Translations under genes and position numbers: made by a program
In this document: positions 49,922 to 59,293 of the stretch, in pieces
How positions within the stretch are numbered: position 1 is the first letter of the stretch
How the letters are laid out: the number at the start of each line of letters is the position of its first letter
The notes under the pieces: generated by a model
What the model was told of the DNA's origin: nothing
The model's database searches: none
Seen by the model: only the letters and a program-made list of their open reading frames with translations
Origin: a bacterium
GTDB lineage: Archaea; Thermoplasmatota; E2; JACPAO01; JAHFTW01
NCBI GenBank assembly: GCA_040390065.1
Contig: JAZJZE010000001.1
Span: 186,068-250,067 of the forward strand
DNA length: 64,000 bases
Direction: 5' to 3'

Positions 49922-51382
49922 ATGGCCCATCTGAGCGCCTCGTACAGCATCACGGTCCGGCTGCAAATCGACAACAAGCCGGGCATGCTGGGCAAGATCG
50001 CGACCCGCATCGGCGAGCTGGGTGGCTCCATCGGCGCCATCGACATGGTGCGCACCGAGCAGGGCGGCAAGGTCCTGGTCCGCGACATCTCCATCGACTG
50101 CAGTTCGGAGGAGCACGTCGAGACGATGCGCAAGGGCCTGCAGGACATGGATGGCGTCAACGTCGTCGCCGTCTCGGACCGCGTCTTCCTGGCGCATCTG
50201 GGCGGCAAACTCACGACGCACTCCAAGATTCCCCTCAAGACGCGCGACGACCTGTCCATCGCCTACACGCCCGGCGTCGCCCGCATCTGCTGGGCCATCG
50301 CGAAGGACAAGTCCGCTTCGTTCAACCTCACCATCCGCAAGAACTGTGTCGCCGTCGTGTCGGATGGGTCCGCCATCCTGGGCATCGGCAACCTCGGCCC
50401 CGAAGCTGCCATGCCGGTCATGGAGGGCAAGGCGCAGTTGTTCAAGGAATTCGGCGGCGTCGACGCGTTCCCCATCTGCATCGACGTCCATACCGCCGAC
50501 GAGATTGTCGCGTTCGTGAAGGCCATCGCGCCGACGTTCGGAGGCATCAACCTCGAGGACATCGCGGCGCCCAAGTGCTTCGAAGTCGAACGCCGCCTGA
50601 AGAAGGAACTCGACATCCCCGTCTTCCACGATGACCAACACGGCACGGCCATCGTGATGCTTGCGGCCCTCACCAATGCGGCGAAGATCGTCAAGAAGGA
50701 CTTCAGCACGCTCAAGATCGTCGTCTCCGGCGTCGGCGCCTCCGGCACGGCCTGCACCAAGATCCTGCTTGCCGCTGGCGCCAAGGACATCGTCGGCTGC
50801 GACTCCAAGGGCGTCGTCTCGAAGTCCCGCACGGACCTCAACGACGAGAAGAAGGAGTACGCCAGCATCACGAACCCGCGCAACGTGTCAGGGACGCTGC
50901 AGAGTGTCCTGAAGGGCGCCGACGTCTTCATCGGCCTCAGCGCGAAGGGCCTGCTGAAGCGCGCCGACATCCTCACGATGGGCAAGGATCCCATTGTCTT
51001 CGCGATGGCGAACCCGGACCCGGAGATCACGCCCGAGGAAGCCGGAGACACCGTCGCCGTCATGGCCACGGGGCGCAGCGACTACCCGAACCAGATCAAC
51101 AACGTGCTCGCCTTCCCCGGCGTCTTCCGCGGCGCCCTCGACGCAGGAGCGACGGACATCAACGAGGCCATGAAGGTCGCAGCCGCGCACGCGCTTGCCG
51201 GCCTCATCTCGGACTCGGAGCGCAGTTCCGAATACATCATTCCCAGCACGTTCGACCCACGTGTTGGGAAGACCGTCGCGGCGGCCGTCAAGGAAGCCGC
51301 CATCAAATCGGGCTGCATCCGCAAGAAGACGCCCGGCTCGGTTCCCATCTTCGAGGAACACGTCAACGCGATGCACCGCTAG
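49922..51382 (+). CDS. NAD(P)-dependent malic enzyme with an N-terminal ACT domain
   Basis: NKPGMLGKI (ACT), AYTPGVA, PVMEGK, NLEDI, HDDQHGTA, GRSDYPNQINN. Confidence 0.95.
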   Translation: MAHLSASYSITVRLQIDNKPGMLGKIATRIGELGGSIGAIDMVRTEQGGKVLVRDISIDCSSEEHVETMRKGLQDMDGVNVVAVSDRVFLAHLGGKLTTHSKIPLKTRDDLSIAYTPGVARICWAIAKDKSASFNLTIRKNCVAVVSDGSAILGIGNLGPEAAMPVMEGKAQLFKEFGGVDAFPICIDVHTADEIVAFVKAIAPTFGGINLEDIAAPKCFEVERRLKKELDIPVFHDDQHGTAIVMLAALTNAAKIVKKDFSTLKIVVSGVGASGTACTKILLAAGAKDIVGCDSKGVVSKSRTDLNDEKKEYASITNPRNVSGTLQSVLKGADVFIGLSAKGLLKRADILTMGKDPIVFAMANPDPEITPEEAGDTVAVMATGRSDYPNQINNVLAFPGVFRGALDAGATDINEAMKVAAAHALAGLISDSERSSEYIIPSTFDPRVGKTVAAAVKEAAIKSGCIRKKTPGSVPIFEEHVNAMHR

Positions 51383-51473: not shown

Positions 51474-51642
51474 TCCGCGCCATTGCAGGACGTCCAAGAG
51501 CCCACGCGGGCGATGCCCAAAATCTCAGCGAAATCTGTGGATGAGGGGGGCGGGAACCCGGGAGAAGCAAACCGTGGCCAGGCGCCCCCATTCGAGGCTT
51601 GTGCGGCGTGCTTTATATGTGATGAAGGCGGATGCCAGAGTC

Positions 51643-51655
51643 GTCCCTGGAGGAC
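51643..51655 (+). promoter_or_regulatory. shared leader motif GTCCCTGGAGGAC (copy 1), containing a GGAGG Shine-Dalgarno
   Basis: Identical to 52353-52365; about 30 nt after TTTATAT. Confidence 0.7.
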
Positions 51656-51660
51656 CAATC

Positions 51661-52194
51661 ATGAACACTTCCGCCAAACTGACCCTCGCAATCATGGCTA
51701 CGGCCTTCCTGGCCTTCGCCGGCTTGGCCACCACCGTGGCCGCCGACCCTGGCCAGAACGCCCAAGACCGCAAGGACGCCGCCAAAGACAAGATGGAGGC
51801 CGCCAAGGAGCGCATGCAGGAGGCCCGCGACCACGCCAAGAAGGACCGCCGCCACCTCGCCGGCCTCGAGATGGCCATCAAGGTCCACGAGCGCATCCTC
51901 AACCGCACCGAGGAGCGCATCACGAAGCTCACCGAGAAACTGCAGTCTGGCAACCTCACCGGAAACCAGACGCAGGCCCTCGAGAAGCGCATCGAGAAGC
52001 TCAACGACCGCGTCGACAAACTCGAGGCCAAGATTCAGACCCTGAAGGACAAGCTGGCCGAGCTCAAGGCGAAGTGGCAAGCCCACCGCGCCCAGGCCGA
52101 ACTCAAGCGCGGCGAAGACGACCTCGACGAGGGCGACGCCTCCGAGGGCTCCTCGACGTCGGAGTCGAGCTCCAGCACGAGCGGCTCGGCCTAA
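51661..52194 (+). CDS. secreted coiled-coil protein
   Basis: Signal peptide ending TVAA-D; heptad-rich body with a QSGNLT turn; Ser/Glu-rich tail. Confidence 0.85.
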   Translation: MNTSAKLTLAIMATAFLAFAGLATTVAADPGQNAQDRKDAAKDKMEAAKERMQEARDHAKKDRRHLAGLEMAIKVHERILNRTEERITKLTEKLQSGNLTGNQTQALEKRIEKLNDRVDKLEAKIQTLKDKLAELKAKWQAHRAQAELKRGEDDLDEGDASEGSSTSESSSSTSGSA

Positions 52195-52352
52195 GCGGCC
52201 CATTCCCACCTCCTCCCTTCCACCCAACCCCCTTTTCTTGCGGCCGGCTTTCTGAAGTGGCCCGGCACGCCATATTCCAGCTTTTCCACTGGGGCCAACC
52301 GTTTGATGGCTGTCCGGCGGCGCTTAAGTATCCCGCCCGGACCTGCACGGCT

Positions 52353-52365
52353 GTCCCTGGAGGAC
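52353..52365 (+). promoter_or_regulatory. shared leader motif GTCCCTGGAGGAC (copy 2)
   Basis: Identical to 51643-51655; about 30 nt after CTTAAGTA. Confidence 0.7.
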
Positions 52366-52369
52366 TCGC

Positions 52370-54337
52370 ATGACCCGCCAACCAACAGCCCGGAGCCTCG
52401 CCATCCCCCTCGCCGTCGTCCTCTTCATGGGCGCACTGGCGGGCCTCGCGACGGCCCAAGAACCCGGATCGTCGCCGTCCTGCACCGACACCAACTCCTG
52501 CCCGCCCCCGTGCGGCACCGATGCGACGGACCCGTGTCCTGCCCCTTGTGGTGAGGGCACCGACCATCCCTGCCCACCGCCTTGCGGCGACGGGACCGAC
52601 CACCAATGCCCGGCCCCTTGCGGCCCGGACACCGACAAGCCATGCCCTCCGCCGTGTGGCCCCGACACGGACAAACCGTGCCCGCCGCCCTGCGGCCCCA
52701 ACACGGACCACCCGACCTGTCCTCCCCCCTGCGGTCCGGGGACCGAGCACCCCGAATGCCCCTGCCCCACCGCCGGTGGCTCGAACTGCCCGCCGCCCTG
52801 CGGCCCCGGCACGGACCACCCGACCTGTCCTCCCCCGTGTGGCCCGAACACCCCACACCCGACGTGCCCGCCGCCATGCGGTTCGGCCGAAAAGCCCTGC
52901 CCGCCGCCCTGCAAGCCGGGCAGCGACCACCCGTGCCCGCCTCCGTGCGGCCCGCAGGCAAACCACCCATGCCCCCCGCCCTGCGGACCCAAGACCGAGC
53001 ACCCCTGCCCGCCGCCTTGCGGCCCGCAGACGGACCACCCCTGCCCGCCGTGCGGCAAGCCCGCCCCGGCCGGCAACAACACGGCGCCACCCGCCAAGCC
53101 GTGCCCGCCTCCCTGTGACAAGCCGATGCCGCCTCCGGGCGAGCCGGCGCCGGGCAACGGCACCCAGCAACCGCCTCACCCGGATCACCCGTGCGGCCCA
53201 CCGCCGTGCCCGGGCGTGACGATTGGCGCCGGTGAAGGCGCCGGGTTCCACGCCGGCGACGGCAACGAGAGCATCGGCGCCGGCGAGAACGCAGGCCTGC
53301 ACCTGGCCCTCGGCCGCTGCGGCCCCTGCCCGGCCTTCCACTTCGAGGAAGGCGCCGGCGTGCACGTGCAAGCCGGTGAAGCACAAGCCGGCGCCGGCGA
53401 GCACCTCGCCGACCACATCAAGGCCGTGTGCGGCCCGTGCGCCCCGCTGCACCAGGACATGGGCGCGGGCGTCCACGCAGGCAACGCGTCCATGGGTGCG
53501 CACGAGCACGCCGCCGTGATGCTCTGCCACCCGCCGCCGCCCTGCCCGCCGCCCACTGGCGTCCGCGAAGCGGCGGCCATCAAGGCCAAGGCTGGCGACG
53601 TCGGCGCGGAGATGCATGAAGGCATGATGATCCACGCCGTGGGTTGCATCCCGCCGCCCTGCACCCCGGCCCCACAGCCGGGCCTGCATGAAGGCGCAGG
53701 CGCCCACGCGAACGCCGACGGCATCGACGTCCACGCCGGCGAGCATGCAATGGTCCGTCCGATGCCCCCGCCGTGCGGGCCCTGTGGCCCTCAGCCCGGG
53801 GTCCACATCGGCGCCGCTGAAGGTGCCGGCGCGCACGTCCAGGCCGGAAACGTCAGCGCCGGCGTCCACGAGGATGCTGGCCTGCATGTCGGCGACCGCA
53901 TGCTGCACCCGTGCCATCCCCCCTGCCCTGGCCCCGGTGGCCCTGGCGGCGCTGGCGTCCATGAGGGTGCTGGCGTGAAGGTCAAGGACGGCAACGAGAC
54001 CATCGTCGCCATCGGCGAGCGCGCCGACGTGAAGCTGCGTCTTGGCGAAGGCTGCCGCGACCACCCCGGCGACCCGAACGGCGACGACATGAAGCTCGGC
54101 CGCCGCGTGCACGCCATCGAGCAGGCCTTGGATGCAATGGGGCACCGCCTGGACCGCCTCAATGCGACCCTGAACCGCCTCATCGACCACCTGTCGGACG
54201 GCAACCTGACGACGGAGCAGATGGACAAGCTCAACGAGCGCATCGGCCACCTCCTCGACGAGATGGACAAGGTCTCCCAGAAACTGCAGGACCTGACCGA
54301 CGACCTGGACCAGATCCTCCAGCACCTCGGCGGCTAG
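52370..54337 (+). CDS. secreted CPPPC-repeat, His-rich-repeat, coiled-coil protein
   Basis: Signal peptide ending ATA-Q, about 16 CPxPC units, about 7 GAGVH-type repeats, C-terminal heptads with SDGNLT. Confidence 0.88.
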   Translation: MTRQPTARSLAIPLAVVLFMGALAGLATAQEPGSSPSCTDTNSCPPPCGTDATDPCPAPCGEGTDHPCPPPCGDGTDHQCPAPCGPDTDKPCPPPCGPDTDKPCPPPCGPNTDHPTCPPPCGPGTEHPECPCPTAGGSNCPPPCGPGTDHPTCPPPCGPNTPHPTCPPPCGSAEKPCPPPCKPGSDHPCPPPCGPQANHPCPPPCGPKTEHPCPPPCGPQTDHPCPPCGKPAPAGNNTAPPAKPCPPPCDKPMPPPGEPAPGNGTQQPPHPDHPCGPPPCPGVTIGAGEGAGFHAGDGNESIGAGENAGLHLALGRCGPCPAFHFEEGAGVHVQAGEAQAGAGEHLADHIKAVCGPCAPLHQDMGAGVHAGNASMGAHEHAAVMLCHPPPPCPPPTGVREAAAIKAKAGDVGAEMHEGMMIHAVGCIPPPCTPAPQPGLHEGAGAHANADGIDVHAGEHAMVRPMPPPCGPCGPQPGVHIGAAEGAGAHVQAGNVSAGVHEDAGLHVGDRMLHPCHPPCPGPGGPGGAGVHEGAGVKVKDGNETIVAIGERADVKLRLGEGCRDHPGDPNGDDMKLGRRVHAIEQALDAMGHRLDRLNATLNRLIDHLSDGNLTTEQMDKLNERIGHLLDEMDKVSQKLQDLTDDLDQILQHLGG

Positions 54338-54357
54338 GCTCCGCACTCCCGGCCTCG

Positions 54358-54411
54358 TCTCCTCCTTCTCCCCTTCTTCTCCCCTCCTTCTCCTCGCCCT
54401 TTTCATCCCCC
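54358..54411 (+). terminator. polypyrimidine tract, putative terminator
   Basis: Almost pure C/T run containing CTTTT after the stop; a similar tract follows 52194. Confidence 0.5.
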
Positions 54412-54430
54412 TGACCATCCGGTGTCCAAC

Positions 54431-54943
54431 ATGCGTACTCTCTCCCTTGTCGTGGCCGTCCTTGCGCTTGCCCTCCCGAACGCCGTGCATGCCCAGGAAG
54501 GCTGCGACCAAGCCAGTCCGTGCGACCTCGTCGTCGACGTGTCCGACTCCGGCTTCACGGATGTTTCCGTCTCCAACTTCACCCTCAACGACTGGTACAC
54601 GATCGACGCATCCAACGGCGGCGAGACGCCCCACACGCTGACGATCGAAGGCTACGGCGTCTCCATGGCGTTGGGCCTGGACGAAAGCAAGACGCAGACC
54701 ATCCAGTTCTCCAAGCTTGGCTGCTTCGACCTCAAGGACTCGCCAAGCGGCGCCGTCCACAAGCTGCGCGTCGTCACCAGCGACAGCATCGACTTCTCGC
54801 AGCACGTCGCCGCCGAGAAGGACCCGTGCACAGGCCTCCCCGTCGGCCCAACCTCGTCGTCAAGCGGCAAGATGCCGGGCCTTGAACTGCCACTACTGGC
54901 CCTCGCCATCGTCGGCGTTGTGGCCTGGCGCCGCAGGGCGTAG
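54431..54943 (+). CDS. cupredoxin-like surface protein with a PGF-CTERM-like tail
   Basis: Signal peptide; SNGGETPHTLTIEG; C-terminal MPGL-hydrophobic-RRR. Confidence 0.7.
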   Translation: MRTLSLVVAVLALALPNAVHAQEGCDQASPCDLVVDVSDSGFTDVSVSNFTLNDWYTIDASNGGETPHTLTIEGYGVSMALGLDESKTQTIQFSKLGCFDLKDSPSGAVHKLRVVTSDSIDFSQHVAAEKDPCTGLPVGPTSSSSGKMPGLELPLLALAIVGVVAWRRRA

Positions 54944-55026: not shown

Positions 55027-57447
55027 ATGGCCCCAGACCAGGGCGATCGGGTGTCGTTGCGGGCCATGGTCGGCGTGCGCCTCGCAGGCGTCGGTTTTGT
55101 CGCAGTGCTCCTCGTCCCGGGTGCCGCCGCCTTGTTTGTCGCGGCCGGCCATTTTCACGTCTATGCGAGCGAGGACGGGACATCCTGGGCGCCCCAAACC
55201 GTTCTCGACGAGTTTTCCCCCCGTGACCTAATCTCCCTGGGAGGCCTCTGGGTCATAGTCGGTCCGGGCGGGGTCCACTTCACATCCGATTTGGCTGCGG
55301 GCTGGACCACCGCGGCCGCTACCGGCGGCTACCAACTCTCCGGCGTCGCGACCGATGGCACCAACCTCGTGGTCGTCGGGTCCGCTGGATGGGTCGGCCG
55401 CAGTGCAGACGTTTCGTCCTGGAACTTTGCGCACGTGACGACGACAAGCCTGGAGGCCGTGGCCACGGATGGGTCCACTTGGCTCGCTGTCGGTGGCGGC
55501 GGGGAGGTCCTGCGCAGCTCGGATGCGGGAGCCTCATGGGTGGAGCAGCCCCAACTGGGCACCGCGGACCTCCATGCCGTGCTCTGGAATGCGCAGGCCG
55601 GTCTCTGGGTCACCGGCGGCGAGAACGTCTACGAGAGTCCGGATGGCACGACGTGGACATGGATTGGTGGCGTCGCCGACGCCAACGACCTGGACGTGGT
55701 CGGTGGGCGGGCGGCCTTGGCTGGGGGCTCCGGAAACATCGGCATCTGGACGGGCGCCGTGTCCTCAGGCTGGCATTGGCAACAGGCGGGCACGGAGGCG
55801 TTCAACGGGTTGGCGTCGTGTGCGGGCGTCACGGTCGTGGTCGGCAACGGCGGCAAGATTCTGACGGATGCCGCCGCGGATTCTGGCGTGCCCAGCTTCG
55901 GCGTCCAGCCGAGCGGCACGACGGACGACTTGGGCGCCGTCGCCTGTTCACAGCACCCTCTTGCCTGCTATGCCGCTGCCTCGAGCGGCGCAATCGGTGC
56001 GCCCTTCGTGTTCGCCGCCTCGGGAGGCACGCCGCCGTACAGTTGGGCGGCGCCGGGCAGCAGCAATCCCGGCCCAACGGAAGGTCCAGCGCTCTCGGCC
56101 GCGTTCGACGAGCCGGGGACGCACTCGATCATCCTGATGGATTCCGGCGCGGGCTTCGCGCAGCAGACGGCCGAGTGTGTCGTCACAATCCAACCGTCGC
56201 CGCCGCCAACCGCGCTCGCCTGCACCATCCCGATCCAGGTCGTCGCATCCGGCACGCCCGCTAGCTTGAGTGCAGCGGGCGGCCAGGCGCCCTACACCTG
56301 GATGGCGCCGGGGTCCGACCAGTCCGAAGCCGTCCAAGACGGTGCGTTCTCCCCGTCGTTCCTCGACGCCGGTGCGCACTTCGTGACGGTGCAGGACGCC
56401 GCCGGCGCCGTGGCCCATTGCGAAGTCGACGTGGTGGTGGCCCCAGTGCCACCGCTGGCCGAACCGTGGAGCGTCCCCGCTGCGTGCGCGGTGGCCGGGT
56501 CGGGGCCTGACCCGGTGTCAGTCGACGGCGCCTGCCCCGTACCGACGCAGGGTGACGACGCGCCTCCAGCCCCGGACGCCGCCGTCCCAGGGGCGCTCAG
56601 TCCCACCATGAAACTGGAGGCGTCCAGCCCGACGGCAATGAGGTCCGGTTTGGTGGGCAACGGCGAGTTGGGTTTCGGCGATGCCTGCCCCGCCGGCCGC
56701 GCACCGTGCGCATTGGACGCGTCGGGGTTGGCCCCGGTGCCGCTCGTCGCCACCGGGTGCGACGGAGCCAGTCGCGCGTTGTCGAGTTGCACGCACACCC
56801 CGTCTGCCGCAACGCCGCTCGGCTCGGCGGTGCCCGCCCCTCGGGACACGGCATTCTCGCCGCCAGCGTTTCTCAGTGGCCTTGCCACTGGATGCCTGCT
56901 GGTCATCGTGGGCTTCCGAGGGATCCGCTGGTGGTTCCTGGCCCTGTTTACGCGGCTGCGCCGCAACGACCTGCTGGACCACCCGACGCGCGCCGCCCTA
57001 TTTGCGCGCGTCGAGGCCGAGCCGGGAATCCACTTCCGCGCGCTCATGCGCGCGGTCGGCAAGGGCCAGGGCACGGTGCGGCACCACCTGGAGGTGCTGG
57101 TCGCCGGCGGCTTGCTGGAGGACATGGACGTCCACGGCTTCAAGGGGTACCGCCTGGCGGGGCCGTGCGCAGCAGGGCCGCCGCTTCCTGCAAGCCGCGT
57201 CTTGGGCACACGCCACGCGCGTCGGCTCCGGGAACTCCTTGAGGGGCGTCCACCGACCAGCGTCCGCCAACTCGCTGAGGCCGTGGGTTTGTCCTATGGC
57301 GGTACGATGCACCACCTCCGGCGCCTGCAGAAAGCCGGGCTGGTGCGACTGGCCGAAGTTCCGGGGCAGGGATTGCGGGCCAGCTTCGTTCCAGCGATGC
57401 CCTCAGAGCGGGCAGGGCTGCTTGCCGGAGAACGGACATCGTCCTAG
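55027..57447 (+). CDS. beta-propeller + Ig-like + TM + double winged-helix protein
   Basis: SEDGTSW, SSDAGASW, SPDGTTW repeats; GGTPPYSW and GGQAPYTW Ig-like domains; TM; LLDHPTR...PGIHFRAL and SVRQLAEAVGLSYGGTMHHLRRL. Start may be 55066. Confidence 0.82.
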   Translation: MAPDQGDRVSLRAMVGVRLAGVGFVAVLLVPGAAALFVAAGHFHVYASEDGTSWAPQTVLDEFSPRDLISLGGLWVIVGPGGVHFTSDLAAGWTTAAATGGYQLSGVATDGTNLVVVGSAGWVGRSADVSSWNFAHVTTTSLEAVATDGSTWLAVGGGGEVLRSSDAGASWVEQPQLGTADLHAVLWNAQAGLWVTGGENVYESPDGTTWTWIGGVADANDLDVVGGRAALAGGSGNIGIWTGAVSSGWHWQQAGTEAFNGLASCAGVTVVVGNGGKILTDAAADSGVPSFGVQPSGTTDDLGAVACSQHPLACYAAASSGAIGAPFVFAASGGTPPYSWAAPGSSNPGPTEGPALSAAFDEPGTHSIILMDSGAGFAQQTAECVVTIQPSPPPTALACTIPIQVVASGTPASLSAAGGQAPYTWMAPGSDQSEAVQDGAFSPSFLDAGAHFVTVQDAAGAVAHCEVDVVVAPVPPLAEPWSVPAACAVAGSGPDPVSVDGACPVPTQGDDAPPAPDAAVPGALSPTMKLEASSPTAMRSGLVGNGELGFGDACPAGRAPCALDASGLAPVPLVATGCDGASRALSSCTHTPSAATPLGSAVPAPRDTAFSPPAFLSGLATGCLLVIVGFRGIRWWFLALFTRLRRNDLLDHPTRAALFARVEAEPGIHFRALMRAVGKGQGTVRHHLEVLVAGGLLEDMDVHGFKGYRLAGPCAAGPPLPASRVLGTRHARRLRELLEGRPPTSVRQLAEAVGLSYGGTMHHLRRLQKAGLVRLAEVPGQGLRASFVPAMPSERAGLLAGERTSS

Positions 57448-57505
57448 AGTGCTCGCTGCGCCGTGGTCCACTCTCCTTTAGGCCATCCCACCGTTGCTTC
57501 GGCCC

Positions 57506-59293
57506 ATGTCCGCAATCGTCGTGGGGCTCGTCGGTGCGAGCCTGGTGGCGTTGTTCGTCCCGGCAGTCGAGGGCCAGATTCCTGCCGGTTCGTTCGAGTT
57601 TCCCGTCGGCCTGACAGGACGCCCCGTGGACGAGCACAGCGCGGTCTGGGCGCGCAGCGGAATCTACATCTTCGGCGGCTGGGACGTGTACCCGACGAAC
57701 GCCATCCTGCGTTGGACGCCGGCTCCGGGGGTCCCGGTGGCGACGCAGGTCTCGGCCTTGCCGTGCGGCCTCACGGTCCAGACGAGTGCGGTCATGGTCG
57801 GCCCGTTCGCCTACGTCGTGGGACTCGGCTGCATCGTCCGCTTTGACCCGGCCACCAACGGGGCGACGGTGCTGCCCATCACGCTTCCCCACCCGGTGCG
57901 GTGGCCTGGCCTCGTGTGGACCGGCCGGTACCTGTACGTCTTCAGCGGCGACTTCGCGTCCGGCGTCATCCAGAAGGTGGATCCCGTGGCGATGACCGCC
58001 GTCGTCCTGGGCGTGTCGTTGCCGCGCGGCAGCATCGCTTTCAACGCCGGATGGGACGGGACCTACGCGTACGTCACCGGTGGCGGCGGAAGCGAGATCT
58101 ACCGCTTCGACCCGCAAGGCGGCGGTTCGGTCACGACGCTGCCCGTGGCGCTGCCCATGGCCGTCGGCGAGGCGGCCAGCGTGTGGGACGGCCAAGCCCT
58201 GTGGATTTTCGGCGGCGCGTGGGACTTGGCGGTCGTGCAGCGCTTCGACCCGGTGGCCATGGCCGTGACGACGGAGAATCCCGTCATGCCGGCCGCCGAC
58301 GACGCGGCGGTGTACGATGGCTGCAACAGCGCTTACATCATTGGCTCCGATCCGCAGTTGACGCCCGAGGCGGGCGGACTCATTCGGCGGTATGGGCTCC
58401 CGACCTCATCCACTTCGGCCTGCGCGGTCACGTCGGAGCCGCCACAGGCGTCCGCGAAATGGATCGTGGCCAACTCCGCATGTGATGGCACGACCGTCCA
58501 GTTCAGCGACGCCTCCACTCCAGGGTCGTTCCCGATTGTGGGTTGGAGCTGGGCCTTCGGCGACGGCGGGACGAGCACCGACGCGGACCCCGCGCATATG
58601 TATTCCGGGCCTGGCGACTACGGCGTCACCGAATCCGTCGAGGACGCCAACGGCACGGTTTCGACGTTCGCCGTGACCATCACGACGAGCTTGCCGGGGC
58701 CGTGCATCGCGCCGACGTTGTCCCAGGACAACCCGCGTGCCCCGCGGCCGCCCCATGACGGCGTCGATGCCGGCCTCGCGAGCGGGGACATGGACGGCGA
58801 CAGCGTCGCAGACCGGCGCGACGACTGCCCTTTCATCGCCAACTCGGGCCAGGCCGACGCGGACGCAGACCTGGTGGGCGATGCCTGCGACGGCGACATC
58901 GACGGCGATGGGCTCGCAAACGCGCAGGACAACTGTCCAGACGCGTCGAATCCGGAGCAACCCGACGGCGACGGCGATGGCGTGGGGGACGCCTGCGACG
59001 GCGACATCGACGGCGACGGCGTGGCCAACCTTGTGGACGACTGCCCGACATTCGCCGACCGGGGCCAGTCGGATGCGGATGGCAACGGCGTCGGCGACGC
59101 GTGCCAAGTCACGAGTCTCCAGGCGGGCGCGGGCCCAGACACGTCGGCAAGCCGCATCCCGCTGGAACGGAGGGTCGTGGCGGTGCAGCCCCCGGCAAGC
59201 GATGCTGGGCATCCCGACACTGGGGGACTTGCTGCGGCCTTGCTCGCGGTGGCCGGGGCGTCTGCCCTTGTGGTCTGGCGCCGCAGGGTCTAG
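57506..59293 (+). CDS. Kelch + PKD + TSP3 surface protein with a C-terminal anchor
   Basis: IYIFGG / YVTGG / WIFGG Kelch repeats, WSWAFGDG (PKD), TSP3 repeats, TM followed by WRRR. Confidence 0.87.

Follow-up and report, generated by a model that had tools for sequence, protein, structure and literature searches.

A secreted helical hairpin and a membrane-tethered cupredoxin-like protein: a probable anchored surface complex made of two undescribed archaeal protein families

What keeps secreted proteins that lack a membrane anchor on the surface of an archaeal cell? The question is raised by three adjacent genes, A, B and C, in the 64,000-nt stretch of contig C1 analysed here (the window), which belongs to a metagenome-assembled archaeal genome (G000) of 2,677,426 bases and 66.8% G+C. 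Gene A (51661–52194; 177 residues, from its open reading frame (ORF) and a hairpin profile) and gene B (52370–54337; 655 residues) lie in tandem, where an earlier note on this DNA had placed them. They are followed by gene C (54431–54943; 170 residues, from its ORF, an alignment and a model), which has an alternative in-frame GTG start at 54422; all features given below are on the forward strand unless stated otherwise. As the note described, A and B are built alike, each with a TATA-like box, a 13-nt leader just upstream of the ATG, a signal peptide and, beyond the stop codon, a pyrimidine tract, and neither has an anchor, there being no hydrophobic segment in either sequence beyond the signal peptide. 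The note also took the gene after B to encode an anchored, cupredoxin-like protein, and C indeed models as a cupredoxin fold with a C-terminal transmembrane (TM) tail. The best overall explanation of the locus, which we hold with middling confidence, is that A and B are tandem paralogues that would be anchored through their hairpins on C.

The relationship between A and B is specific. A pairwise BLASTP comparison aligns them at 33% identity over 95 residues (E 1e-10), and a hairpin-core profile built from 19 relatives, with the G000 sequences left out, matches A at 2.6e-25 and B at 6.4e-12 among the 23,933 six-frame ORFs of G000, the next ORF following at 0.93. A tblastn search of the genome with A and with the coiled coil of B, using compositional adjustment, gave no A–B match at E≤1; the HMMER-based searches found it. 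The coiled-coil relationship claimed earlier is borne out by these profile matches, and A and B are true paralogues with one specific helical-hairpin domain.

In A, a signal peptide (residues ~1–28) and a charged helix precede the hairpin (~58–135), which carries an NLT/NQT double sequon at its tip (98–104) and is followed by an acidic Ser/Thr-rich tail. The sequence GNLT, which the note had placed at the hairpin turn, is found there both in the profile and in a model of B. Among 20 family members the tip consensus is G-N-[LF]-T-x-N-x-T and N-x-S/T is kept in 19, usually doubled as N-x-T-x-N-x-T, which identifies GNLT as a conserved N-glycosylation sequon at an exposed turn. The hairpin has a conserved face, made up of the motif K-A-R-R-x-A-H-A-L-x-x-A-I-x-A-x-E and the opposing helix. 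The acidic Ser/Thr tails of A-type proteins vary freely in length and composition between species, as expected of a surface brush. Many A-type proteins finish, after a Ser stretch, in a tail of small residues (SSSAAA, SSAPA, TSPAA, TSGSA) with no TM segment after it. Three long A-type variants, L029 (G024), L035 (G015) and L014 (G020), carry an extra module after the hairpin and then long acidic or GDGS repeats; the module follows the conserved pattern V-C-H...(~20 residues)...A-H-x-x-H-G-D-x-x-G-A-C and may represent a small domain held together by metal or disulfides.

Profile searches with the hairpin and with C covered 38 genomes of the order; one family (f1) is represented by 32 genomes, G000 included. 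The hairpin family is present in 27 and C in 28 of the 31 other f1 genomes, and a single-sequence search with A found a match in 21 of 24 family genomes. Outside f1, profile matches were marginal and single-sequence searches found nothing in 16 genomes. In 25 of the 32 f1 genomes (G000 included), C is immediately preceded by a hairpin gene in the same orientation. Synteny therefore establishes the hairpin gene and C as the conserved unit, probably the ancestral one, and this cassette is vertically inherited across one Thermoplasmata family. In G044 two complete hairpin–C cassettes are found on different contigs (C47:6128–7468 and C79:6203–7424).

The A and B pair, which the earlier note had regarded as the unit, is not conserved in this way. 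Long B-type copies occur in only 4 of the 32 f1 genomes (G000, G004, G007 and G010); tandem hairpin genes are also found in G004, G007, G010 and G015. The B-type relative in G010 has 623 residues, that in G007 is shorter (261 residues) and that in G004 is split over two contig ends. B arose by a lineage-specific duplication of the hairpin gene and gained a large N-terminal arm.

Gene C comprises a signal peptide, a C-x5-C loop, an ectodomain (~30–118), a Ser-rich linker and a C-terminal PGL, TM helix and RRRA. Its family is well defined, with 112 representative clusters at E≤1e-10 in a library of 1.84 billion representatives, nearly all of 145–200 residues. An alignment of 18 orthologues shows C25, P30 and C31 (a C-x4-P-C loop), G41, W55 and H68 to be invariant. 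The core of the AlphaFold model has a predicted local distance difference test (pLDDT) score of 93–98, and a Foldseek search of the Protein Data Bank (PDB) with this model returned 4hci (Cupredoxin_1; E 4.6e-07, TM-score 0.77 by target), with FtrB (8vuk) at rank 6, EfeO at rank 34, and CuA domains also matched. Sequence-based signals are fainter: the best PDB sequence-profile match is 4hcf (E 0.046), proteins with multiple Cupredoxin_1 domains appear as distant matches of the C profile among the 1.84 billion representatives (hhalign probability 17%, E 0.0015), Pfam gave no match on C at E≤0.1, and PF13473 (Cupredoxin_1) matched none of 18 members at E≤0.01. As modelled, the ectodomain is a non-classical cupredoxin fold, a Greek-key beta-sandwich. 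Type-1 copper ligands are not conserved in C: H68 is the sole invariant His, C98 of G000 is variable and the C-terminal loop reads PSGD, not C-x-x-H-x-x-M.

The tail of C, which in most members reads (K/S)-x-PG[FL], hydrophobic helix and RRR after the Ser-rich linker, suggests the means of attachment. In this succession of elements it resembles the tails of PGF-CTERM/ArtA proteins of Haloferax and methanogens, and the genome has an archaeosortase A homologue (G000:C9:52619–53509; TIGR04125, 106.6 bits against a cut-off of 75), together with 24 ORFs that end in PG...TM...RR. C differs from these proteins in that the cut-offs of the curated models are not reached. Known ArtA substrates are large S-layer glycoproteins, as against a 12-kDa adaptor domain in C.

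The conserved adjacency of the two genes and their duplication as a cassette led us to choose A and C for complex prediction. Residues 29–150 of A and 22–128 of C were modelled together, using both family alignments and alongside three controls. The A–C complex scored 0.82 and the best of the three controls 0.01; 58 of 80 solved complexes attain that mark, as do 2 of 110 mismatched pairs, a rough guide since the alignments were our own. At least 87% of contacts recur between runs, and the partner has a pLDDT of at least 85. On A, the interface (residues 61–86 and 110–128) takes in both arms of the hairpin, including its most conserved motif (R63, R64 and A72, with E77 between contact residues). 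On C, it is formed by the Cys loop and one sheet edge (23–25, 31–36, 43–47, 59–63 and 83–86). The interface of A is more conserved than the rest of residues 29–150 (permutation p 0.007); taken over both proteins, conservation gives the model only partial independent support. We consider it fairly likely that A docks on C as in the predicted complex. With its conserved face predicted to lie against C, the hairpin looks like an anchoring module rather than, or besides, a module for self-assembly, and the two proteins would probably constitute an anchored archaeal surface-protein complex.

The mechanism that we propose would run as follows. The hairpin proteins would leave the cell through the Sec pathway, as their signal peptides suggest, and the sequon-bearing hairpin tip would be N-glycosylated. 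C would stand on its Ser-rich stalk, tethered by a PGF-CTERM-like, archaeosortase-type signal and presumably lipid-anchored, and would capture the conserved hairpin face at the outer face of the membrane, supplying the anchor missing in A and B. A would present its acidic Ser/Thr-rich tail, probably glycosylated, and B, as a later duplicate in few species, would place an arm of ~530 residues rich in Cys, Pro and His before the hairpin, where it may be cross-linked and/or metal-binding. Each hairpin gene would be expressed from its own strong-looking promoter, with a short Shine–Dalgarno leader and a terminator-like tract, and C by read-through.

Several observations weigh against this mechanism. 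Within the hairpin alone, the enrichment of conserved residues at the A interface is weak (p 0.10), and on C the interface residues show no excess of conservation over the remaining ones (p 0.88). The hairpin of B has diverged at the docking motif, with Glu77 of A, which is invariant in the family, aligned to Gly, which makes binding of B to C uncertain. As to the tether, C is not listed at E≤0.1 by the PGF-CTERM model TIGR04126 (best score in the genome 22.4 bits against a cut-off of 24.5), and PF18204 (PGF-CTERM) matches only 1 of 18 C members (E 0.003). The C orthologue of G004, the closest relative (L038:6091–6522), has a lipobox-like L-A-G-C N-terminus and no PG...TM...RRR tail; judged by these features it seems to have swapped its anchoring mode, and C looks membrane-tethered either way. 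Three genomes of genus g11 have A-like genes and lack a strong counterpart of C: two gave no match, and the third a weak one (3.3e-4) on another contig. Finally, a surface-coat role is drawn from general traits only, and the cupredoxin fold and the Cys and His residues of B fit a metal role equally well. A surface-coat function for the cassette is a credible suggestion that falls slightly on the doubtful side.

What B would add to such a complex depends on its arm. After the signal peptide (residues 1–29), residues 30–285 comprise 16 units of ~12 residues, CPPPCGPxTDHP, with 37 Cys and 36% Pro, and the DNA has a corresponding 36-nt period (73–76% matches). Residues 286–560 comprise about seven Gly/Ala/His modules, G-V-H-E-G-A-G-A-H-V-x-A-G-N-[VAE]-[ST]-x-G-V-H-E-x-A-G, with 24 His; they are split by C-P-P-P-C or C-G-P-C linkers, and each has a central sequon, GN[EAV][ST]. 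A conserved linker, GEGCRxHPGDP, connects the modules to the C-terminal hairpin (561–655), with GNLT at its turn. In total B has 50 Cys and 42 His (7.6% and 6.4% of residues). A model of residues 286–655, based on a four-row alignment, has a mean pLDDT of 52 and reaches ~70–78 only in the C-terminal hairpin, where helices at 287–324 and 330–368 of the modelled part turn exactly at D-G-N-L-T. The seven modules are drawn as beta-hairpins at low confidence, which we take as a hint only.

The full length of B is supported by several kinds of evidence (ORF, profile, orthologue alignment, model and third-codon-position G+C content, GC3). The public gene call (P0038) has 373 residues, begins at an internal GTG (window 53216–54337) and lacks the signal peptide and every Cys-Pro repeat. 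However, GC3 is 0.83–0.95 along the whole frame and the orthologues keep the arm in frame, so that the 655-residue reading is right and the public call is truncated. A 900-residue antisense frame over all of B (52103–54805, reverse strand) was rejected as spurious, since GC3 and orthologue conservation favour the forward strand; its Arg/Ala/Gly-rich composition is expected from the opposite strand of a high-G+C gene. Exact copies of the 655-residue B and the 177-residue A are absent from a collection of 15 billion proteins. A search of 5.8 billion proteins with residues 286–655 of B returned its own truncated gene call only, and B against PDB sequences gave nothing below E 0.5.

The composition of the arm suggests that it could bind metal or be cross-linked by disulfides. 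The IgG3 hinge consists of repeated Cys-Pro-Pro-Cys units and is a rigid polyproline rod with inter-chain disulfides. The units of B resemble this hinge, with no homology implied; they differ in being archaeal, in their C-x3-C spacing and in having a His or Asp in each unit. By analogy with the immunoglobulin hinge, the prolines between Cys pairs would make interchain disulfides likely in B, and intrachain disulfides or chelation unlikely. The orthologue in G010 has Arg in place of many of the module His residues, so that a strict reading of them as metal sites loses weight. A more elaborate plug-and-socket display can be imagined, in which lipid-anchored C would be the socket and the hairpins interchangeable plugs, A bearing an acidic glycan brush and B a disulfide-stapled Cys-Pro rod with His-rich beta-hairpin modules, the whole serving as an outer coat or metal-binding matrix; this picture is tentative, and on balance we doubt it.

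The 13-nt leader GTCCCTGGAGGAC is found as an exact match at 51643–51655, 5 nt before the ATG of A, and at 52353–52365, 4 nt before the ATG of B, with the TATA-like boxes 22–24 nt upstream. In the genome scan suggested by the earlier note, these are the only two exact copies, both in the window and in all 2,677,426 bases. Allowing one mismatch adds 8 sites in the genome, compared with 8 (5+3) for a reversed control pattern, and the 13-mer is therefore not a genome-wide motif. The relaxed pattern GTCC-N0-3-GGAGGA has 41 genome sites, and only at A and B is it combined with an upstream TATA box and a downstream signal-peptide ORF. The leader includes the Shine–Dalgarno core GGAGG, which is complementary to the 16S rRNA 3′ end, ...GGATCACCTCCT (C1:25525), so part of the 13-mer is an ordinary Shine–Dalgarno site.

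We aligned the sequences upstream of 24 A- or B-type genes, drawn from 22 genomes, whose proteins are only 24–59% identical to A. They have a common layout, TTCGA-N5-TGTCCGA-N5-6-TTATATA, an unconserved spacer of ~22 nt, (T)GTCC-N0-2-(A/T)GGAGGAC, 4–6 nt and ATG, in which the columns of TTCGA, GTCCG and the TATA box are near-invariant or invariant. Promoter and leader are thus kept across genera, and the spacer between them is variable. From sequence and alignment, the promoter of A (51591–51621) reads TTCGA-N5-TGTGCGG followed by the TATA box TTTATAT (51614–51620), and that of B (52302–52332), located also by the matrix described below, reads TTTGA-N5-TGTCCGG followed by the TATA-like CTTAAGTA (52324–52331). 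A and B have ~70 nt of promoter and leader in common. Co-regulation of the two genes is plausible, the promoter having been duplicated with the gene.

The usual distance from TATA box to start in archaea suggests that transcription probably begins at or near GTCC, giving a leader of ~18 nt. Spacing from GTCC to GGAGG varies (0–2 nt), which speaks against a dimeric operator of fixed spacing. Single-sequence folds give a small GTCC/GGAC hairpin in all 24 leaders; as a conserved RNA structure this candidate was rejected, with 75% of cells paired against 77.9% in shuffled alignments and no two-sided changes, in what is a weak test given that MAFFT misaligns the stem at unequal loops. A position matrix of the upstream half, built with G000 left out, ranks A first in the genome (35.8), a third gene second (28.1) and B third (26.5). 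The third promoter (G000:C5:97225) has the element TTCGA-N5-TGTCCGA-N6-TATA, and its gene (G000:C5:97280–98869) encodes a secreted protein of 529 residues that has thrombospondin-3 repeats as well as a Cys-rich region and ends in a TM+RRR anchor. The three matching promoters may mark a small regulon of surface-protein genes.

The pyrimidine tracts pointed out in the earlier note are present after the stops of A (52199–52243) and B (54346–54413), but they are not special to these genes, being a general 3′-end feature of this genome. CT-rich tracts with at least 27 pyrimidines in 30 nt number 62 in the genome, of which 42 are found no more than 80 nt past the end of an ORF of 120 or more residues, and they contain CCTCC, the anti-Shine–Dalgarno core. 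They are likely to be a terminator signature of this high-G+C archaeon. The tract after A would accordingly be terminator-like; that after B, which at 68 nt is the longest polypyrimidine tract in the genome and lies between B and C, would be terminator-like or attenuating. No TATA box or A/B-type promoter was seen before C, which is preceded by a CT-rich spacer in most relatives as well. C may be expressed via read-through from the hairpin gene, with which the CT-rich spacer and the lack of a visible promoter fit.

In the family, the cassette is set among housekeeping genes, with malic enzyme upstream (an ORF at 49922–51382 in the window) and, on the other side, genes for an RPA-like OB-fold protein, a winged-helix protein and ZPR1; in 11 of the 14 loci with enough flank, the RPA-like gene is the immediate downstream neighbour of C. 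These conserved neighbours offer no functional clue. In G000 alone, an insertion of ~4.3 kb (window 55027–59293) separates C from the RPA-like gene and holds two genes, here called D and E, described from Pfam matches. D (55027–57447; 806 residues) has TM segments, a propeller-like ectodomain, two ArsR/HVO_0163-type winged helices and also BiPBP_C-like domains. The earlier note had described it as a membrane-tethered regulator next to the cassette; it is a genuine TM protein with two winged-helix domains, but it is not conserved at the locus, a D-like gene being found in G004. E (57494–59293) has Kelch, PKD and thrombospondin-3 repeats, a C-terminal TM helix and RRRV.

Two other accounts of the locus would share much of the evidence given above. 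In the one put forward by the earlier note, A and B would be co-regulated subunits that assemble through their hairpins into a filament, coat or matrix, with B contributing cross-links or metal sites. The hairpin domain, promoter and leader common to A and B suit such an assembly, as do secretion without an anchor, the 50 Cys and 42 His of B and the tandem hairpin genes in G004, G007, G010 and G015. With B-type genes in only 4 of 32 family genomes, however, whatever conserved role the hairpin has cannot require B, and the conserved hairpin face is predicted to bind C; we regard self-assembly of this kind as unlikely. Metal handling, with C as a non-classical cupredoxin that would bind or oxidise copper or iron, the hairpin as its partner or buffer and B as a Cys/His sponge, draws on the best structural and sequence matches of C, namely FtrB, EfeO and the B. 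anthracis Cupredoxin_1 protein, for which both a Cu and a Zn structure have been solved. FtrB in particular binds Cu2+ through Asp118/His121 without the classical His-His-Cys set (PMC11966278). The invariant H68 and conserved Asp residues of C, the Cys and His content of B, a Pfam Metal_resist match in 1 of 20 A-type members (1.1e-4), and the His-rich ends and C-H...HGD...C module of some A-type members would also suit metal handling. Yet no conserved ligand set could be identified in C, with its single invariant His and variable C98, Pfam Cupredoxin_1 matches none of its 18 members, the His residues of the B modules give way to Arg in G010, and the conserved neighbourhood has no transporter, permease or metallochaperone gene. 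An account in terms of metal is improbable to our minds. Both accounts are partly compatible with anchoring on C.

Two further accounts remain. A Spy/CpxP/ZraP-type protein, acting outside the cytoplasm as a chaperone or stress-sensing hairpin for which C would be the client or receptor, would match A in size, charged helical hairpin and extra-membrane location, and L-T-x-x-Q is present at the tip in 7 of 20 members, with Metal_resist again in 1 of 20. The conserved feature of the tip is nevertheless N-x-S/T and not LTXXQ, no LTXXQ family is among the Pfam matches at E≤0.001, and the A profile against the PDB found only generic coiled coils, with nothing below E 0.01 and no Spy/CpxP/ZraP-type chain, all of which makes a chaperone very unlikely. 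It could also be argued that nothing specific is present, and that a generic coiled coil, a ribosome-binding site repeated by chance and adjacent but unrelated genes have been combined; indeed the 13-mer includes an ordinary GGAGG, pyrimidine tracts after genes are common in the genome, and tblastn gave no A–B match. We find this hardly credible in view of hairpin profile matches specific to A and B, exactly two exact 13-mers in 2.68 Mb, a promoter and leader conserved across genera with a spacer between them that is not, and hairpin–C synteny in 25 of 32 genomes.

Anchoring of the hairpin on C has partial parallels in known systems. The Cupredoxin_1/Cup-II type (B. anthracis 4hci/4hcf/4hcg, Brucella FtrB 8vuk and the EfeO N-domain 7wgu) has the same Greek-key beta-sandwich as C, and FtrB and C are alike in having no classical His-His-Cys set. 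C differs from these proteins in its PGF-CTERM-like anchor, in the lack of a Pfam match and of an identifiable conserved metal site, and in its partner, which is a secreted hairpin and not an Ftr1/EfeU permease. In the Sulfolobus S-layer, anchored SlaB holds anchorless, glycosylated SlaA, and the coiled coil of SlaB is the anchor. This is a working analogy only, with no sequence relationship tested for or found, and the roles would be reversed in the hairpin–C pair, whose beta-sandwich bears the anchor and whose helical hairpin is free.

Neither Pfam nor NCBIfam has a family that any of A, B and C matches above the cut-off, and no named homologue of any of them was found among 5.8 billion proteins; public homologues of the window's proteins carry only labels such as 'Thermoplasmata archaeon' or 'Thermoplasmatota archaeon, hypothetical protein'. 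Matches of A below the Pfam cut-offs (PspA/IM30, 26.1 against 33.9 bits; Tropomyosin, 28.2 against 38.6; DUF7310, 22.4 against 40) are each found in only 1 of 20 hairpin members. The A profile against the PDB found generic or designed coiled coils only (best E 0.012), and the best feature score in an ESM Atlas search with A (0.80) was below lead level, its structural neighbours being long helical hairpins of a generic kind, the flagellin N-terminus among them. The hairpin–cupredoxin pair was likewise not found in the accessible portions of the literature on Thermoplasmata, archaeosortase or archaeal surface proteins, in keeping with the view of the earlier note that no described system has this layout.

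The envelopes of uncultured Thermoplasmata are almost unknown, and the cassette would add to them two families without a Pfam or NCBIfam model. The array in B of 16 CPPPCGPxTDHP units and His-rich modules is an unusual extracellular design, and full-length B is easily missed since its public call lacks the N-terminal part. If the plug-and-socket arrangement and the chemistry suggested for B were true, they would represent a new archaeal envelope design and a new structural, non-redox employment of the cupredoxin fold. If anchoring on C is true, this fold would gain a structural role as an adaptor; the locus would offer a handle for studying or enriching these archaea, through an abundant surface antigen as well as its strong, conserved promoter and leader; and the hairpin–C pair would explain how anchorless secreted proteins stay on their cells.

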